Source of the DNA: Bacteroidia bacterium
Lineage (GTDB): Bacteria; Bacteroidota; Bacteroidia; AKYH767-A; OLB10
Length of the DNA: 50,626 nt
NCBI GenBank assembly: GCA_039914625.1
Contig: JBDSOU010000158.1
Coordinates: forward strand, 1 to 50,626
Reading direction: 5' to 3'
The notes under the pieces were generated by a model. The model was not told where the DNA came from, ran no database searches, and saw nothing but the letters and a program-made list of their open reading frames with translations. The position numbers and the translations under genes were made by a program. Below are positions 7,062-14,085 of this stretch, piece by piece (the stretch's first letter is position 1; every line of letters begins with the position of its first letter).

Positions 7062-8915
7062 TTATTTACAATACTGATTATATAGCTGTATGGCCTCTTC
7101 GTTACGCAAATTTGCCCCGTTCAAAAAATCACTGCATGCATCAGCTTTCCGGTTCAGTTGCAAATACAATAAGCCCCTGTTTTTAAATGCAATTGAAAAA
7201 TCAGGTTTATGTTTAAGTGCAAGTGTTAGATGTTGTTCACAGCTTATATAATCTTTTTTGCTGAAATCAACATTGGCAAGTGTATTATAGCAATCAATAT
7301 TTTCCGAATCCAGCTCGAGGCATTTTTTGCAATCTGCTATTGTTCCTTCCATATCATTCAACATAAATTTGATCTGTGAACGGCTGGAATAAATTAAACT
7401 TTGACCGGAATCTATTTTTGCAGCCATGTTAAAATCAGCAAGTGCCGATATGTTGTCTTTAATTCTTAAATAAGCCAAGCCGCGGTTGTAATAGGTGCGC
7501 CCTTCATCCGGTTTCAGTTTAACGGCTTCAGTGTAATCACTGATGGCTTCATTATGCATGTTTAATTTTTCATAAGCAAGCCCTCTGTTTCCATATGCCC
7601 TGGCAATGTAATCAACGGCAGGGTTTTTAGCAATAATGTCGCTCAAAAGAGAAATATCGTTTTGCCAGGCAAGATTTCTTTTGACAACAGAAAAAGTAAA
7701 AAATGCAATATAAAAGATAAACAATGAAATTAAATACGGATAATATTTATTGAAAAAATATTTTTTTTTCTCTTTCACGTCAATGATAAAAAACAAAGGC
7801 AGCAAATACAAACCTATGTAGGGAAAATATGCATAACGGTCTGCAACAATAAACAACCTCGAAGGAATAAGTTGAATGTTGATGGCAATAGTTATTAAGA
7901 ACAAGCCGGCACAAAGGATGACCTGCTTATTCCTTCGCGCTTTGTAAACAAGAAACAATAGCAAAAGAAATAATATAGCTGCAGCATAATATTCCCACGG
8001 AAGCAATGAGCCATTTTTAGGCGGGTAAACATAAATGGAACAAAGATTAACTGGTAAAATAAATTTGAATAGATAAAAAACAAAAGAATAACAGGCAATA
8101 AAAAAAATATCCACCGCAGAGTATGAAATCAACATACCTTCAGCAATATTTTTCATGGTTGAGGAATTCATCAACGTAATTATTCCGAACAAAATACTTA
8201 AGAGAAAAAAAGGAATTTTTTCCAGGATTACTTTTTTTGACAACAATTTCCTGCCAAGATAAAAGTCAAGTAAAAGCAGTAGTACGGGAAGTGTTACCGC
8301 CTGTGCTTTTGAAAAAAGTGAAAGAATAAAAAACAGTCCGGTGAGGATAATATTTTTTAGTTGCTGTTCTTTCAAAAATTTCAAATAATAAATTAAGGCA
8401 AGCAAATAAAAAAAAGTGTACATGCTGCTGCTTCTTGCTGAAATCCATGAAACAGCTTCCACATTCATCGGGTGAATACCAAAAAGCAAAGCAACGATAA
8501 GCGCAATTGTAATGTTACCGGTAAGTAATTTTATAAATTTATAAATAAGAAAAATATTTGCGAGATGAAAAATCAAATTAACTAAGTGCAATGGGAATGT
8601 ATTTAATTCCGAAAAATGGTAATTGATCGCAAAAGACATCACCGGCAACGGCTGATACATTATGACATAATAATTGGTAAAAAATCCTTTAATGCTTTTC
8701 CAGGCAAGATGGGTTACTTCGGGATAATTTGAAAAATATTCATTGTCATCAAATGTGAGAATATTTCCATGGAGTGCATTTGAATAAATAAATGCAACTA
8801 AAATAATAATTCCCGCAAGAAAGTAGTTGGGATGTAAAATTGCTTTTTGTTTAGCAGCAGCTTCTGCTTTTGCAGTTGTTTGCTTTGGTAAGGAAGGTGG
8901 AGCTTTTTTTCTCAT
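7062..8915 (-). CDS. GT-C type (PMT/TMTC-like) multi-pass membrane glycosyltransferase with C-terminal TPR repeats
   Basis: About 11 predicted TM helices. The first loop carries an acidic TFDDNEYF motif, as in PMT/TMTC enzymes. The C-terminal ~200 aa hold several TPR units (AYGNRGLAYEKLNMHNEAISDYTEAVKLKPD, YYNRGLAYLRIKD..., FKNRGLLYLQLNRKADA). Confidence 0.65.
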   Translation of the reverse strand: MRKKAPPSLPKQTTAKAEAAAKQKAILHPNYFLAGIIILVAFIYSNALHGNILTFDDNEYFSNYPEVTHLAWKSIKGFFTNYYVIMYQPLPVMSFAINYHFSELNTFPLHLVNLIFHLANIFLIYKFIKLLTGNITIALIVALLFGIHPMNVEAVSWISARSSSMYTFFYLLALIYYLKFLKEQQLKNIILTGLFFILSLFSKAQAVTLPVLLLLLDFYLGRKLLSKKVILEKIPFFLLSILFGIITLMNSSTMKNIAEGMLISYSAVDIFFIACYSFVFYLFKFILPVNLCSIYVYPPKNGSLLPWEYYAAAILFLLLLFLVYKARRNKQVILCAGLFLITIAINIQLIPSRLFIVADRYAYFPYIGLYLLPLFFIIDVKEKKKYFFNKYYPYLISLFIFYIAFFTFSVVKRNLAWQNDISLLSDIIAKNPAVDYIARAYGNRGLAYEKLNMHNEAISDYTEAVKLKPDEGRTYYNRGLAYLRIKDNISALADFNMAAKIDSGQSLIYSSRSQIKFMLNDMEGTIADCKKCLELDSENIDCYNTLANVDFSKKDYISCEQHLTLALKHKPDFSIAFKNRGLLYLQLNRKADACSDFLNGANLRNEEAIQLYNQYCK

Positions 8916-8992
8916 TTAATAAGAATCACCAGAAAAATTTAAATGTCGAAATGTTTTACAATACCCATTATACCATCATTCCATCATTCTTT

Positions 8993-10105
8993 TCAATTTG
9001 CTATTGTCAGTTTTTGCAAAAAATCTTTTCCGTTAATCGCAGCATGGATCATATAAATTCCATTTGTTAATCCTAATGAATGACTGTTGAAAATTTTAAA
9101 AATTTTTCCACTGTTCATTGTATCGTCCATTAATTCTTTCACCAGCTCACTTGCACTATTATAAATTTCCACCTGAACAGTTGATTTGTTTTTCAATGTC
9201 ATATTTAAAACAAAATTTTCTTTTGCAGGATTTGGATAAACACTGAATGACTCTGATTGCAAAACATTTTCAGTAACACTGACAGGCAACGATCTGATAC
9301 TATCCGGGTAAACGATACTCGTAACGGTTTCTGTTCCGAATAGAGTAGTGGTATTGATTTGTAAAAGCGGAATACTTTTATTTTTTCCAATCCATTTATA
9401 TTCTGTTGTAAGCGGGCGGTCAATTCCGAAACCAATTCCTGTTACCAGGTAATTTATTGAATCATGAGCTGCAATTGTGGATGTGACTCGCAAAGCATCA
9501 AACGTACCGTAAGGAGTAATGAGGGTTCCCCATCCGTCAGCAAGATTTACGCGATGAAGACTGTAACCATAATAAAGAGTACTTGGAATAGTTAACGAAA
9601 AATCAGCGTTGCACGAATCATTGTCATTATAATTAAGAGGTAAATTATAAATAATGTCCATGCTGTTCATGGTGAGTGGTGTATCAAATCCGTTGATATT
9701 CGCACCGTATCCGACCATCCTGAACTGTGCAGAACTCCTGTAATAAAAGTTAAACACATCTCCAACCTGGATTCCTGCAACAGGCGGGAATGCAAATTGT
9801 CCGCGTGTGGCAACATTTGCCCTATTGGGGTTAAATGATACATCTGCAAAAGCAAGCTGATAGGTCGTTGCTGTTTGAGCAACACTTAAAAAAGTATCAA
9901 TGTTCTGTGCAATCCATTGCAACTGCGAAAAATCCCAGGTAAAATTTGCTCCTGTCGGAAGCGGATCAATTGCCGCAGTCACTAATCCATAACTTACACG
10001 GATAGTATCACCGGCTGCAGGCATATCGTTCTGATCAATTATAATTTGGGCGCTTGATGCACATGAAAAAGTAATTGCAATGATAAAGAAGTAAAGTTTT
10101 TTCAT
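8993..10105 (-). CDS. T9SS C-terminal-domain secreted protein, function unknown
   Basis: Signal peptide MKKLYFFIIAITFSCASSAQ. The C-terminus FSVYPNPAKENFVLNM...LGLTNGIYMIHAAINGKDFLQKLTI fits the type-A sorting domain. Confidence 0.75.
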   Translation of the reverse strand: MKKLYFFIIAITFSCASSAQIIIDQNDMPAAGDTIRVSYGLVTAAIDPLPTGANFTWDFSQLQWIAQNIDTFLSVAQTATTYQLAFADVSFNPNRANVATRGQFAFPPVAGIQVGDVFNFYYRSSAQFRMVGYGANINGFDTPLTMNSMDIIYNLPLNYNDNDSCNADFSLTIPSTLYYGYSLHRVNLADGWGTLITPYGTFDALRVTSTIAAHDSINYLVTGIGFGIDRPLTTEYKWIGKNKSIPLLQINTTTLFGTETVTSIVYPDSIRSLPVSVTENVLQSESFSVYPNPAKENFVLNMTLKNKSTVQVEIYNSASELVKELMDDTMNSGKIFKIFNSHSLGLTNGIYMIHAAINGKDFLQKLTIAN

Positions 10106-10315
10106 CTGTTTTTCTATTTATTACAAACTTACGGAAGAATTTCCATTCGTAAAAATTGTTCATTTGTTAAGCTTATAATCAGGCAAAAAATATTTATTCG
10201 ATTCCTGACGCGCTTTTTAAAAAAAATCATGTAGGTTTGGTTTTTTTAAATTCCATTCAAATAACAACGTAACAAACTTACTATTCCGATTTATTCAAAT
10301 GTTCCGAATAACAAT

Positions 10316-12928
10316 ATGAGCACATCCCGCCAACTTGCCGCTATACTGTTTGCCGATATACAGGGCTATACTGCACTGATGCAGGATGATGAAGCCAAAG
10401 CAAACTCTTTTCGGGAAAAACTTAAAAGGAATTTAGACGAGGAGACTCTTCTTCATAACGGACGCATTCTAAAGTTAAGCGGAGATGGGGCGTTATGTAG
10501 TTTCAATAGTGCTATTGAAGCTGTGCGTGCCGCTATTGGAATTCAGGAGGCAATGTTCATGGAGCCAAAGGTCCCGTTGCGTATTGGCATACACTTGGGT
10601 GACGTGATGTTTGAAGATGGAGATGTTTATGGTGACGGTGTGAATGTCGCTTCAAGAATTGAATCATTTGCCGTGCCCGAAGCAGTTTTTATTTCAGGAA
10701 AAGTGTTTGATGAAATAAAAAATCAGAAGGACATTGAAGCAGTTTCGCTCGGAAGATATTTACTCAAAAATGTAAAAGAGCCGGTGGAAATATATGCCAT
10801 CAGTAACTCCGGTTTACAGGTTCCGGATAAAATTAAACTCGCAGGGAAGGGTGTAAAATATTCAGAGCACAGATCAGTAAAAAATTTAAAATCAACAATC
10901 CTAAAAATCGGGATACCCATCATAGCGGCCTGCATTCTTGGATTTTTATTTATTCCTTCATGGTTTAAAAAACAAAACGCACGAAATGTTTTATTGCCTG
11001 CCATTCAAAGATTAGTGGATGAAAATTTTCGTCCGCCAACTGAAGCATTGGATATGGCAGTGGAAGCGGAAAAATATATTCCTGCTGATTCTGCATTAAT
11101 CAAATTGTGGCCATTAATTTCTACTGATGTTTCCTTTGAAACAAACCCGGCAGCAGCTGAAGTGTTTTGGAAAGATTATGACAAACCGGAAGCTGCATGG
11201 CGTACTGCTGGTACCACACCATTAAAGGGCTGGCGCTTTCCACGCGGCTATGTTCGAATGGAAATAAGAAAGAACGGTTTCCAAACCATTGAATATGCCG
11301 GACCGTGGGCTTACGGAAAATTGGGAAATGAATTATCACAACTGAAATTAGATTCTGCAGGAAGCCTTCCGGAAAACATGGTGCGTATTCCAATGAGTAA
11401 GCCCGACATGTATATAGTCGGACTGGAACAGTATGGCGGAAAAAATGTAGGCGAATTTTTAATTGATAAGTATGAGGTTACCAATAAAGATTTCAAAATA
11501 TTTATGGATGCTGGAGGATATACTCATAAATTATATTGGAACCATCCTGTTAGTGCCAATGGAAAAGAAATTCCTCTTGATTCAGCTTTGGTATTATTTA
11601 CTGACAAAACAGGAAGACAGGGACCAGCCAATTGGGAAGCCGGCACTTATCCGGATGGACAGGAAAATTTTCCGGTAACAGGAGTTTCATGGTACGAAGC
11701 TTCGGCTTATGGAGCTTACGTCAAAAAACAACTTCCCACCGTTTTTCACTGGGGCGCTGTAGCTGCCACTTCGCGTACACAGTTCATTGTTCCGTTAAGT
11801 AATTTTAATGGTAAATCTGCTGTTGATGTTGGAAGCAATCCCGGCTATTGTTCATTTGGTGTTTATGACCTGGCGGGCAATGCACGTGAATGGTGCTTCA
11901 ATGAAAGTACGAATCGGGGTCAACATTTTATATTAGGTGGGGGATGGAATGATCCGAAGTATGCGTTTAATGACAGCTATACACAATCGGCATCAGACAG
12001 AAGCATAACAAACGGTTTCCGTTGCATCAAAGAGCTTCCCGGAGATACCACTTTGGCTGGTCTGACTGGAGAAGTATCACTTGCTTTCCGTGACTACCGG
12101 AAAGAGAAACCCGTGGACGATAAGACTTTTGCTTTTATACTTAACCAGTATGCTTACGACAAAAAACCTTTGGATGCCAAAACAGAAAAAACTATTGAGG
12201 GCGAAAGCTGGATAGCAGAAAAAATTTCATTTGATGCAGGTTACAATAATGAACGATTGGATATATACCTGTATTTGCCAAAAAAATTTAAGGCACCTTT
12301 TCAACCGGTTTTGTTTTTTCCCGGCTCAGGCGATATTTTTTCAAAACAATACGATCCGCAATCCATCAATGGACGAATTGATTTCATATTAAAAAGCGGA
12401 AGGGCTATAATACGTCCTATATATAAAGGAACTCATGAAAGGCATGATGATTTGAAATCAGATTTACAGGACACAACAGTTTTTTATAAAGATCATATTA
12501 TTATGTGGCGCAAAGAAATCGGCAGAACAATAGATTTCCTTGAAACACGAGCCGATATGCAGGCGGATAAAGTTGGATTTCTTGGTTGGAGCTGGGGAGG
12601 GTTTCTTGGAGGTATTATTCCTGCTATTGAGAAAAGAATTAAAGTTGTTGTTCTCAATGTTGGTGGGATGGAAATGCACAAGGCTTTGCCCGAAGCGGAT
12701 CAAATAAATTTTCTGCCACGTGTTACACAACCGGTATTAATGCTGAATGGAAAGCATGATATGTATTTTCCTGTTGAAACCTCGCAAAAACCCATGTACG
12801 ATCTGTTAGGGTCACCAAAAGAAGATAAGAAAATTATCATTTACGAATCAGGACATTTGGTACCGCGAACTGATTTTGTAAAAGAAACACTGCTATGGTA
12901 CGATAAATATCTCGGGAGGGTGAAATAA
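10316..12928 (+). CDS. multidomain membrane protein: class III adenylate/guanylate cyclase - TM - PEGA-like - FGE-sulfatase (SUMF1)-like - alpha/beta hydrolase
   Basis: Cyclase motifs in aa 5-170: ILFADIQGYT, LKLSGDGAL, RIGIHLGDV, GDGVNVASR. TM at aa 194-216. PEGA-like segment at aa 270-328 (FETNPAAAEVF...GTTPLKGWRFPRGYVRMEIRKNGF). SUMF1-like region at aa 355-572 (FLIDKYEVTNKDF, FPVTGVSWYEASAY, YDLAGNAREW, GFRC). Hydrolase region at aa 640-865 with a GWSWG elbow (Ser codon 12590-12592), plus KHD and SGH. Confidence 0.8.
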   Translation: MSTSRQLAAILFADIQGYTALMQDDEAKANSFREKLKRNLDEETLLHNGRILKLSGDGALCSFNSAIEAVRAAIGIQEAMFMEPKVPLRIGIHLGDVMFEDGDVYGDGVNVASRIESFAVPEAVFISGKVFDEIKNQKDIEAVSLGRYLLKNVKEPVEIYAISNSGLQVPDKIKLAGKGVKYSEHRSVKNLKSTILKIGIPIIAACILGFLFIPSWFKKQNARNVLLPAIQRLVDENFRPPTEALDMAVEAEKYIPADSALIKLWPLISTDVSFETNPAAAEVFWKDYDKPEAAWRTAGTTPLKGWRFPRGYVRMEIRKNGFQTIEYAGPWAYGKLGNELSQLKLDSAGSLPENMVRIPMSKPDMYIVGLEQYGGKNVGEFLIDKYEVTNKDFKIFMDAGGYTHKLYWNHPVSANGKEIPLDSALVLFTDKTGRQGPANWEAGTYPDGQENFPVTGVSWYEASAYGAYVKKQLPTVFHWGAVAATSRTQFIVPLSNFNGKSAVDVGSNPGYCSFGVYDLAGNAREWCFNESTNRGQHFILGGGWNDPKYAFNDSYTQSASDRSITNGFRCIKELPGDTTLAGLTGEVSLAFRDYRKEKPVDDKTFAFILNQYAYDKKPLDAKTEKTIEGESWIAEKISFDAGYNNERLDIYLYLPKKFKAPFQPVLFFPGSGDIFSKQYDPQSINGRIDFILKSGRAIIRPIYKGTHERHDDLKSDLQDTTVFYKDHIIMWRKEIGRTIDFLETRADMQADKVGFLGWSWGGFLGGIIPAIEKRIKVVVLNVGGMEMHKALPEADQINFLPRVTQPVLMLNGKHDMYFPVETSQKPMYDLLGSPKEDKKIIIYESGHLVPRTDFVKETLLWYDKYLGRVK

Positions 12929-12951: not shown

Positions 12952-14085
12952 TTATTCCTTCACAAATTTTTTCACCACCTTGTCTTTTCCATCATTTACC
13001 GTTACAAAATAAATTCCTTTTGAAAATAATTTTACATCTATATCTTTTTTAGAATTAAAATCCGGGTTGCGGATTTGTTCACTATATAATAATTTTCCAA
13101 CAGCATCGTGTATAGTAATCCCCGCGGTTAAATTTTTTCCTGTTGTGACAAAACAGCTTATATGATCTGTAACTATAGTTGGCTGAATGGTAAACCACAG
13201 GGAGTTTCCCGGAGGAGACAGGGGAGCATCAATAGACAATGGTGTTCCCGCATTGCAACTTGCCAGATCTAATGAGCCGTTGGTAAAGCTTATAGGTGTA
13301 CCGGCTATTGCTGAATTACCCACAAACGATATAGGCAGCATCGTGTTTGGGGTATTAGGATTACCACCGCCTAACCCAACATACAAAATTCCGTTAAGTA
13401 AAAAACATCCGTAGCCGTTAAGGGTATTCATGCTGAAAGGATATTGTTTGATCACCTGTCCTGTTGGGGAAATTACCATTATTGAGTCGGTATTGGGTGT
13501 TGCCAAACCCATCAGGCACCAGGCATTTCCGGCATCGTCAACTGCTAAGTCTGCAATGGTAAATTTAAGCTGAGGTGCTGAATATACCTGTGTAAAAGAA
13601 GTGCCGTCATACTTGTCAAGGCAGGAGGCGCCATAAGAATTATAGTAAAGGTAATTACCGGCTCCTGCTGAATTAGACAATGAACAGTTAGACGTGGCAG
13701 GATCTGCGAGCCATGCGGCACCATCATAGTAAGCCGCACTGGAAGCTGAATGTGAATAAAAGGTCGGACTAAATGCGCCACCACTGAGATTATTGCAAAA
13801 ACTAAGTGAGTTGCCGGGAGATGTTGCGCTTACTATAATGCCGTTGTTAGTGATAACACCTCCGTTAATTGCATATTCTGATACCTGCGATCCGCTGATA
13901 CCCCAAAAAGTATTTGGGGTACATGTAATTCCGATCAGAGATTCATTTTTAAAAACAGGAGCACCGGGTTCATTTAGAGGAGGAACTGGGGGCAGATCAT
14001 TTTCACTCAAACCGGCATCGCGGTTCACTTGTGCTTTTAACGTTAGGCTGAAACAGATTAAAATAAGAGTGTAAATATTTTTCAT
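12952..14085 (-). CDS. T9SS C-terminal-domain secreted protein, function unknown
   Basis: Signal peptide MKNIYTLILICFSLTLKAQ and a Ser/Gly/Asn-rich body. The C-terminus ...KLFSKGIYFVTVNDGKDKVVKKFVKE nearly matches the tail of the neighbouring gene. Confidence 0.75.
   Translation of the reverse strand: MKNIYTLILICFSLTLKAQVNRDAGLSENDLPPVPPLNEPGAPVFKNESLIGITCTPNTFWGISGSQVSEYAINGGVITNNGIIVSATSPGNSLSFCNNLSGGAFSPTFYSHSASSAAYYDGAAWLADPATSNCSLSNSAGAGNYLYYNSYGASCLDKYDGTSFTQVYSAPQLKFTIADLAVDDAGNAWCLMGLATPNTDSIMVISPTGQVIKQYPFSMNTLNGYGCFLLNGILYVGLGGGNPNTPNTMLPISFVGNSAIAGTPISFTNGSLDLASCNAGTPLSIDAPLSPPGNSLWFTIQPTIVTDHISCFVTTGKNLTAGITIHDAVGKLLYSEQIRNPDFNSKKDIDVKLFSKGIYFVTVNDGKDKVVKKFVKE

Follow-up and report, generated by a model that had tools for sequence, protein, structure and literature searches.

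A Predicted Receptor-Type Adenylyl Cyclase of Bacteroidota with a Modular PEGA-, FGE-, and Hydrolase-Like Ectodomain

Gene, Cyclase Domain, and Membrane Topology

In this work, a gene at 10316–12928 on the forward strand of a 50,626-nucleotide stretch of contig JBDSOU010000158.1 (Bacteroidia bacterium, assembly GCA_039914625.1) was analyzed. The whole stretch is referred to as the window. The gene encodes a putative single-pass receptor-type adenylyl cyclase of 870 amino acids, with an ATG start and a TAA stop at 12926–12928. The original prediction, made from the letters of the window, had described a single 870-residue open reading frame in which a cyclase, a transmembrane (TM) helix, a formylglycine-generating enzyme (FGE)-type domain, and a hydrolase follow one another. 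The frame was present, and the Pfam scan and the hydropathy scan agreed on this order. The motifs quoted for it were all found in place: FADIQGYT (residues 12–19), SGDGAL (55–60), GDGVNVASR (106–114), and GWSWG (757–761). GFRC (567–570), NGKHD (811–815), and ESGHL (844–848) were further motifs of the protein.

The class III cyclase homology domain comprised residues 5–163 (10328–10804, +) and was delimited by Pfam PF00211, alignments, and Foldseek. The Pfam model (Guanylate_cyc) matched residues 8–163 with 44.3 bits at a cut-off of 21.9. The closest solved cyclase domains were those of 3mr7, a structural-genomics protein of Silicibacter pomeroyi, and of Rv1900c; the best matches had E values of 1e-26 (3mr7) and 1e-8 (1ybt). 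The functional residues were mapped by alignment to 3mr7, Rv1900c, and Ma1120, and their codons were read from the DNA. Asp14 (10355–10357) and Asp57 (10484–10486) were the metal-binding residues, Lys53 (10472–10474) and Asp103 (10622–10624) the substrate-specifying residues, and Asn110 (10643–10645) and Arg114 (10655–10657) the transition-state residues. In the Rv1900c structure paper, Asn reportedly replaces the substrate Lys, and His replaces Asn. The alignment reproduced both substitutions, which supported the mapping. In the AlphaFold2 (AF2) model, the cyclase part was well folded, and Foldseek gave TM-scores of 0.82–0.92 to solved cyclase domains.

The conservation of these residues was investigated in cyclase-type N-termini alone and in a set of 120 orthologs, the best of 3770 relatives returned by a word-indexed search. 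Asp14, Asp57, Asn110, and Arg114 were unchanged in all 120 orthologs, and the pair of Lys53 and Asp103 was kept in 119 of them. One close homolog, P0003, had Glu53 and Asn103. Lys with Asp is the adenylyl-type pair, not the guanylyl-type pair of Glu with Cys, Ser, or Gly. In distant cyclase-type relatives (36–45% identity), the metal and transition-state residues were also kept. The claim of a complete class III cyclase was thus borne out, with six of six canonical residues present, and the choice between adenylyl and guanylyl type fell on the former. By its residues, the N-terminal domain is predicted to be a complete adenylyl-type class III cyclase with all catalytic residues in place.

The sole hydrophobic span lay at residues ~195–216 (10898–10963, +). 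Its Kyte–Doolittle maximum was 2.54, no other peak exceeded 1.4, and the AF2 model had one long helix at residues 188–236. The linker between the cyclase and this span (residues 164–194; 10805–10897, +) was Lys/Ser-rich and of low conservation, with a predicted local distance difference test (pLDDT) score of 57–71 in the model. Linker and TM helix were together 42% identical among the orthologs, the lowest value of all segments. No HAMP domain or coiled coil was found in the cytoplasmic linker. Since the cyclase domain starts at residue 5, there is no signal peptide, and only one TM helix is present, the cyclase is predicted to be cytoplasmic. The protein is predicted to be of type II (N-in, C-out) with one TM helix. 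The single span claimed earlier agreed with the hydropathy scan, and the predicted orientation supported the cytoplasmic cyclase and the extracytoplasmic tail.

Both neighboring genes are on the minus strand, and each encodes a Por_Secre_tail domain of the type IX secretion system (T9SS), as the original prediction had stated for the flanks. The upstream neighbor (8993–10105) is divergent, and the downstream neighbor (12952–14085) is convergent. Therefore, the cyclase gene is monocistronic in its own genome. The divergent intergenic region of 210 bp (10106–10315) contained a candidate −7 motif, TAGGTTTG, at 10232–10239 (+), which was the single occurrence of TAnnTTTG upstream of the gene on the plus strand. 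The same motif occurred on the minus strand of this region at 10124–10131 and 10273–10280. The motifs on the two strands may be Bacteroidota −7 elements for both divergent genes. TAnnTTTG was not enriched in the window (55 found vs 74 expected by chance), and a sigma-70 promoter scan gave results at chance level.

Domains of the Ectodomain

The AF2 model had a mean pLDDT of 77.5, and all domains were folded. Directly after the TM helix, the model contained a helical juxtamembrane segment (residues 217–268; 10964–11119, +), predicted to be extracytoplasmic, with helices at 242–254 and 259–268. Its motif was ARNxLLPAIQ.LVDENFRPPTEA.DMA.EAEKYIP.DSALIKLWP, and its identity among the orthologs was 71%. 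The homology with TIR-type and kinase-type proteins starts here, and the segment is the beginning of a conserved mobile module. It is followed by a PEGA-like beta-sandwich (residues 269–344; 11120–11347, +) defined by the strands of the AF2 model. The protein itself had no Pfam match to PEGA (PF08308) even at E ≤ 1, but Pfam PEGA was found at the equivalent place in P0194 (23.4 bits vs 20.8), P0134, and P0124. The PEGA-like assignment is therefore putative and is based on the modeled fold and on homologs, not on a match of its own.

The FGE-sulfatase fold (SUMF1, C-type-lectin-like) comprised residues 355–575 (11378–12040, +). Pfam PF03781 matched residues 376–572 with 77.7 bits at a cut-off of 23.3, and the family profile matched FGEs of the PDB with an E value of 2.5e-19. 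The copper-binding catalytic pair of FGE is C-x4-C, formed by C336 and C341 in the human enzyme. LCHESYC of T. curvata FGE, which holds this pair, aligned to the Cys-free GGGWNDPKYAFND. A conserved FGE Cys pair was found neither in this protein nor in 151 diverged representatives (34–73% identical to the query) nor in the 120 orthologs. A catalytic FGE was rejected because the pair is missing. Therefore, the domain is a binding fold and not an FGE enzyme. Non-catalytic domains of this fold have been described as ligand binders, and conflict systems use domains of this fold for binding (PMC7159879).

A sulfoxide synthase of the EgtB, OvoA, or SenA type was also rejected, since there was no DinB-like iron-binding domain and only the FGE-fold part matched. 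The EgtB model scored 58 bits vs a cut-off of 360, SenA 48 vs 420, and OvoA 25 vs 400. P0046, P0087–P0089, P0103, and P0118 carry the NCBI product name "SUMF1/EgtB/PvdO family nonheme iron enzyme". This name omits the cyclase and the hydrolase, and the residues that define the activity it implies are absent; it is unsupported by the sequences. Cys527 (11894–11896) and Cys570 (12023–12025) were invariant among the 120 orthologs. This would fit a periplasmic disulfide in an oxidizing compartment.

The C-terminal ~295 residues (576–870; 12041–12925, +) form an alpha/beta-hydrolase with an N-terminal extension and reach beyond the core around GWSWG. This part was recognized by its catalytic triad, the AF2 model, Foldseek, and the family profile. 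Alpha/beta-hydrolase families of Pfam matched weakly over residues 733–854, and FSH1 passed with 22.2 bits vs 21. The nucleophile elbow G757-W-S759-W-G761 lay between a strand and a helix, with the Ser codon at 12590–12592. Asp815 (12758–12760) and His847 (12854–12856) followed in the canonical order Ser-Asp-His. The three residues stood after beta5, beta7, and beta8, which were modeled at 753–757, 807–812, and 838–843. The triad was kept in 120 of 120 orthologs. In the 151 diverged representatives, Ser was conserved in 147, Asp in 146, and His in 145. The hydrolase was the best-conserved domain, with 78% identity among the orthologs.

The nearest folds of the hydrolase in Foldseek were CE7 acetyl-xylan esterases (TM-score 0.62–0.67, 14–18% identity). 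The nearest families by profile were MHETase-like enzymes, cutinases, dienelactone hydrolases (DLH), and the catalytic domain of DPP-IV. The signature motifs of CE7 are RGQ, GxSQG, and HE. Membership in CE7 was rejected, as the sequence has GWSWG and GHLVP, Pfam AXE1 was unmatched, and the likeness was one of fold only. The GWSWG hydrolase with downstream Asp and His that had been claimed is intact, and its triad is nearly invariant. The domain is apparently an active serine hydrolase.

Output Domains, Distribution, and Genomic Setting

An exhaustive search gave 2974 representative clusters at E ≤ 1e-30, most of which matched only residues 195–870. The best 151 of the 2974 clusters were classified by jackhmmer with Pfam-verified exemplars. 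Before the same tail, 86 had a Ser/Thr kinase, 25 a cyclase, 14 a 3-TM anchor, 5 a winged helix-turn-helix (wHTH) domain (Trans_reg_C, with or without BTAD), and 4 a TIR-like domain. The combination cyclase–kinase–tail was found in 2 clusters, kinase–3TM–tail in 1, and the N-terminus of P0176, which had no Pfam match, in 2. The remaining 12 were unclassified or fragments, including P0169, whose N-terminus was TIR_2 (4.6e-20). The ectodomain, from the outer TM end to the C-terminus, is by sequence comparison a mobile four-part module that was repeatedly joined to different outputs.

A tree of 172 tails required 37 changes of the output label, compared with 70.6 for shuffled labels, and the cyclase label was forced to change at least 9 times. 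The clade of the query (99% local support) held 13 cyclase, 5 TIR_2, 4 TIR-like, and 1 kinase rows. TIR-type and TIR-like tails were 54–68% identical to that of the query; the best kinase tail was 49% identical. The homology between cyclase-type and TIR-type proteins began at the outer end of the TM helix, and the TM helix and linker were unrelated. It had been proposed that a kinase output was replaced by a cyclase in this protein. Since the same tail was found on Ser/Thr kinases, outputs were indeed exchanged, but the nearest ectodomains are of the TIR type. The hydrolase had been regarded as an addition to the cyclase version. This was not confirmed: kinase, TIR, wHTH, and cyclase versions all had a homologous stalk–PEGA–FGE–hydrolase unit.

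The TIR-like N-terminus was unmatched by Pfam, and its profile had no significant match among PDB sequences (E 0.85). Its predicted structure (pLDDT 72) had top Foldseek matches that were all TIR, with E values of ~1e-4. TIR versions (L075–L108, for example L075:5254–8061 and L085:5350–8025; P0169, P0124) combine a cytoplasmic TIR_2 or TIR-fold domain, one TM helix, and the same ectodomain. They occurred in metagenome-assembled genomes (MAGs) of Bacteroidia, Cytophagales, Cyclobacteriaceae, Chryseolinea, and Gammaproteobacteria. By analogy, their layout resembles that of a Toll-like receptor with inverted topology. Other versions were also observed. P0194 (1202 aa) and P0202 (1146 aa) have a class III cyclase and then a Ser/Thr kinase, a TM helix, and the same ectodomain. 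P0183, P0195, and P0198 (Trans_reg_C) and P0144 and P0226 (BTAD) have a ToxR/CadC-like arrangement of winged-helix N-terminus, TM helix, and the same ectodomain. The wHTH versions would be one-component transmembrane transcription factors that use the shared ectodomain as sensor.

Full-length orthologs formed at least 120 clusters in Bacteroidota. The best 120 of the 3770 relatives were ~870 aa long, with 100% query coverage and 65–86% identity at the cluster level. A scan of species-representative genomes located full-length copies in MAGs of Chitinophagaceae (Ferruginibacter, Terrimonas), Saprospiraceae, Cytophagales, Cyclobacteriaceae, and Cryomorpha. Cultured carriers were Flavihumibacter petaseus NBRC 106054, Gaetbulibacter aquiaggeris KEM-8, Namhaeicola litoreus CCUG 61485, and Eudoraea adriatica. 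Of 400 Bacteroidota genomes sampled evenly, just 2 others had the gene. The gene is therefore sporadic but strongly conserved. The ortholog of E. adriatica, a strain of the Flavobacteriaceae (L020:6001–8598, 68% identical), has a phage-integrase-family gene (L020:3132–4700, −) and restriction-enzyme-like genes upstream, which hints at horizontal arrival of this copy.

The literature search for the cyclase and FGE architecture, or for the family, found no describing paper. The architecture is thus common, with its 120 or more clusters, but no characterization of it was found in the literature. The protein is a predicted receptor-type class III adenylyl cyclase within a large modular family of single-pass receptors, of which the search found no experimental study.

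The own assembly, which is 90% complete, contained five cyclase-domain genes and one detectable cyclic nucleoside monophosphate (cNMP)-binding domain. The latter was part of a 437-aa cNMP_binding-HisKA-HATPase_c kinase (G000, contig C46, L028:2022–3332, +). This kinase is a candidate receptor of cyclic AMP (cAMP) and would be a cyclic-nucleotide-gated two-component kinase. Its type of catalytic core is probably very common in Bacteroidota. In tblastn, the core hit many histidine kinases beside the orthologs, with diverse N-termini (periplasmic, tetratricopeptide repeat (TPR), and others), and a specific link to them was not drawn.

Proteins of ~650–760 aa with an N-terminal cyclase, a TM helix, and TPRs are also present in Bacteroidota; a study of them was not found, although no search was aimed at one. 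They share the N-in layout, and their cyclase is 45–56% identical over residues 5–176. They differ in having TPRs in place of the PEGA, FGE-like, and hydrolase domains, and they occurred in ~70 of the 400 sampled genomes of the phylum. Such paralogs adjoin the ortholog in a Cytophagales MAG (L025:1–1928 and 8617–10893) and a Chitinophagaceae MAG (L022:3938–5320).

Neighboring genes were counted in 20 orthologous loci that were flanked on both sides by at least 4 kb. Operon partners had been reported as lacking; this held for the own genome but not for 8 of the 20 loci, where the gene stood among FIST (NosP-like) genes. In these eight loci, from Chitinophagaceae and Saprospiraceae, 1–5 FIST+FIST_C genes on the same strand were found no more than 6 kb away, with gaps down to 17 bp. 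The same eight genomes had 23 of their 24 FIST genes inside the cyclase locus. Arrays of FIST+FIST_C genes, often with a large histidine kinase, were observed in L024 (935–5983, 9056–10195), L026, L018, L038, L055, L056, L058, L067, L069, and L078. Stand-alone FIST proteins are NosP, heme-based nitric oxide sensors that control adjacent histidine kinases (PMC12570481). The FIST+FIST_C genes flanking the orthologs in Chitinophagaceae and Saprospiraceae are of NosP size (~380 aa) and are accompanied by a histidine kinase, as in NosP/NosK. They differ from a sensor of the cyclase itself in that FIST is not part of the cyclase protein and is unlinked in the own genome.

The single FIST+FIST_C gene of the own genome lies elsewhere (contig C160, L109:165–5200, −). 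FIST comes first in an operon of the NosP/NosK type and is followed by a histidine kinase of 361 aa without a sensor, a receiver of 145 aa, and an Hpt-containing hybrid kinase of 775 aa. Because this operon is separate, the FIST link does not apply to the own genome. Peptidase, HGSNAT, and SnoaL neighbors were rejected as partners of the orthologs, since they occurred in only 1–3 of the 20 well-flanked loci.

Proposed Signaling Mode and Its Meaning

The output domains of the family offer a clue to the mode of signaling. Mutual proximity is the established trigger of class III cyclases, Ser/Thr (Hanks) kinases, TIR domains, and ToxR-like wHTH domains. Given this shared trigger, and with a TM helix and linker that are not conserved from one output type to the next, the ectodomain most likely signals by altering its dimer or oligomer state. 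Since neither a HAMP domain, a coiled coil, nor any comparable conserved transducer is present, this is the simplest reading. It is therefore considered reasonably likely, though far from certain, that ligand- or substrate-driven dimerization of the ectodomain assembles the cyclase dimer of an N-in/C-out receptor adenylyl cyclase, which then forms cAMP.

In this scheme, binding of an extracytoplasmic ligand, or formation of an acyl-enzyme at Ser759, would shift the ectodomain to another dimer or oligomer state. Two cyclase domains would then meet, with two ATP sites arising where they touch, and the cAMP level would increase. A binding groove would come from the FGE-like domain. By means of the hydrolase, the ligand would either be trapped covalently, as in BlaR1, or be degraded so that the signal ends. 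The invariant triad suggests that the ligand is probably also a substrate; candidates would be esters, lactones, or peptides of envelope or environmental origin. The cAMP formed could then be read by the cNMP_binding-HisKA-HATPase_c kinase.

Several observations weigh against this dimerization scheme. The hydrolase is the most conserved part (78%), and 14 of the 151 relatives have a 3-TM anchor without a signaling output, which could mean that the ectodomain has an independent enzymatic function. The Lys/Arg counts flanking the TM helix were 4 vs 3, which left the orientation undecided. Distant cyclase-type relatives carry Gln, Asn, Glu, Ala, or Asp at the position of the substrate Lys, so that the cAMP prediction is firm only for the close ortholog group. 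The 90% completeness of the genome and the loose first-pass search for cNMP-binding domains leave room for other cAMP receptors.

The first of these points leads to an alternative account in which the ectodomain is chiefly a membrane-anchored periplasmic esterase or peptidase acting on an envelope or nutrient substrate. The cyclase would then be secondary, either as one half of a bifunctional protein or as a reporter of substrate load. The near invariance of the triad across the superfamily, the leading conservation of the hydrolase, and the 14 relatives with only a 3-TM anchor are in line with this account, as are relatives with just one TM helix before the module. Peptidases (M19, M20, M28, M14), an amidohydrolase, and HGSNAT-like acyltransferases were present in some orthologous loci, but the peptidases neighbored the gene in only 1–3 of the 20 well-flanked ones. 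At least 120 of the 151 relatives had a recognized cytoplasmic signaling output, which would be difficult to account for in a pure enzyme. The account is rather unlikely. It also overlaps with the receptor scheme, as an enzyme whose occupancy gates a cyclase is still a receptor.

A role as a receptor for envelope surveillance or conflict was considered improbable. Here, a molecule of a phage, predator, or competitor would be recognized, and the nucleotide signal would trigger defense, in parallel with the TIR sisters and with Toll-like receptors of inverted topology. The nearest ectodomains carry TIR_2 (P0169, 4.6e-20; Gammaproteobacteria loci) or a TIR fold, and FGE-fold domains are binding modules in conflict systems (PMC7159879). 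However, the gene is monocistronic and has no adjacent effector gene, and ordinary cAMP, rather than cCMP or cUMP, is the product predicted from the Lys/Asp pair. The ectodomain was 71–78% conserved across orders, whereas arms-race receptors are expected to diversify. A weak likeness to PycC, the Pycsar cyclase, was found by PADLOC (18 bits, E 2.6e-4), but it is only a generic cyclase similarity. Assignment to Pycsar or another known defense system was rejected, as the neighbors are T9SS cargo genes and an effector is lacking.

That the cyclase domain is a non-catalytic dimerization or scaffold domain, or makes a product other than cAMP, is very improbable: the substrate Lys does vary in distant cyclase-type relatives, P0003 has Glu53/Asn103, and the closest solved relatives, 3mr7 and Rv1900c (the latter reportedly of low activity), are not strong enzymes, but every one of the six canonical residues is in place in this protein and in 119 of the 120 orthologs.

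A wider form of the receptor scheme is rather unlikely and can be put forward only tentatively. The stalk–PEGA–FGE-like–hydrolase ectodomain would define a family of surface receptors in at least two phyla. They would sense enzymatically, through BlaR1-like acyl-enzyme capture or turnover, and signal by induced proximity of the attached kinase, cyclase, TIR, or wHTH domain. The cyclase and TIR branches would be sisters that turn the same cue into two nucleotide signals, and the TIR branch would be an inverted counterpart of Toll-like receptors.

The receptor adenylyl cyclase proposed here shares features with several known systems. Rv1900c (LipJ) of Mycobacterium tuberculosis also combines a class III cyclase and an alpha/beta-hydrolase in one chain. 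LipJ is soluble, with the hydrolase at the N-terminus and the cyclase at the C-terminus, and is without a TM helix, PEGA, or FGE-like domain. Membership in the LipJ family (NCBIfam NF058673) was rejected, with 45.4 bits vs a cut-off of 800 over the cyclase part only. Trypanosome GRESAG4 and animal receptor guanylyl cyclases likewise have one TM helix, an extracellular ligand-binding part, and a dimerizing intracellular cyclase; the cyclase domains of GRESAG4 were weak sequence matches. Their topology is inverted relative to the present protein, which has the cyclase at the N-terminus and the sensor at the C-terminus. Unlike them, the present protein has no kinase-homology or coiled-coil transducer, and its sensor holds an apparently active hydrolase. 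In BlaR1 and MecR1, an extracellular, enzyme-derived serine acyl-acceptor senses beta-lactam by acylation and signals across the membrane. Their fold is unrelated (penicillin-binding or class D beta-lactamase-like), and they have several TM helices and a zinc-protease output, so that the analogy is one of principle only.

Ser/Thr kinases with a C-terminal FGE-sulfatase (DUF323) domain have the same order of cytoplasmic N-terminal output, TM helix, and extracytoplasmic FGE fold. Such proteins have been described as "Proteo1" in the bSTK atlas preprint (10.1101/2025.01.12.632604) and as chlamydial kinases (PMC1262709). The kinase versions found here have the whole tail in common with the cyclase, PEGA and hydrolase included, with identities of up to 49%. 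The papers on FGE kinases mention the FGE-sulfatase domain only, not PEGA and the hydrolase, and the output there is a kinase, whereas here it is a cyclase. The original prediction was largely right but is corrected in four points: the hydrolase belongs to the ancestral module, the FGE-like domain is non-enzymatic, the nearest relatives are of the TIR type, and the architecture is common.

Little is known of the signals perceived by bacterial class III cyclases, and, to our knowledge, cAMP signaling in Bacteroidota has been little studied. The family offers a cyclase whose sensor pairs a conserved, apparently catalytic serine hydrolase with a lectin-like fold. It is also a natural experiment in which one sensor is coupled to kinase, TIR, DNA-binding, or cyclase outputs, and cultured carriers exist. 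With the ligand identified, thousands of database entries would be annotated together, and it would become apparent whether enzymatic or covalent capture is a general mode of transmembrane sensing.

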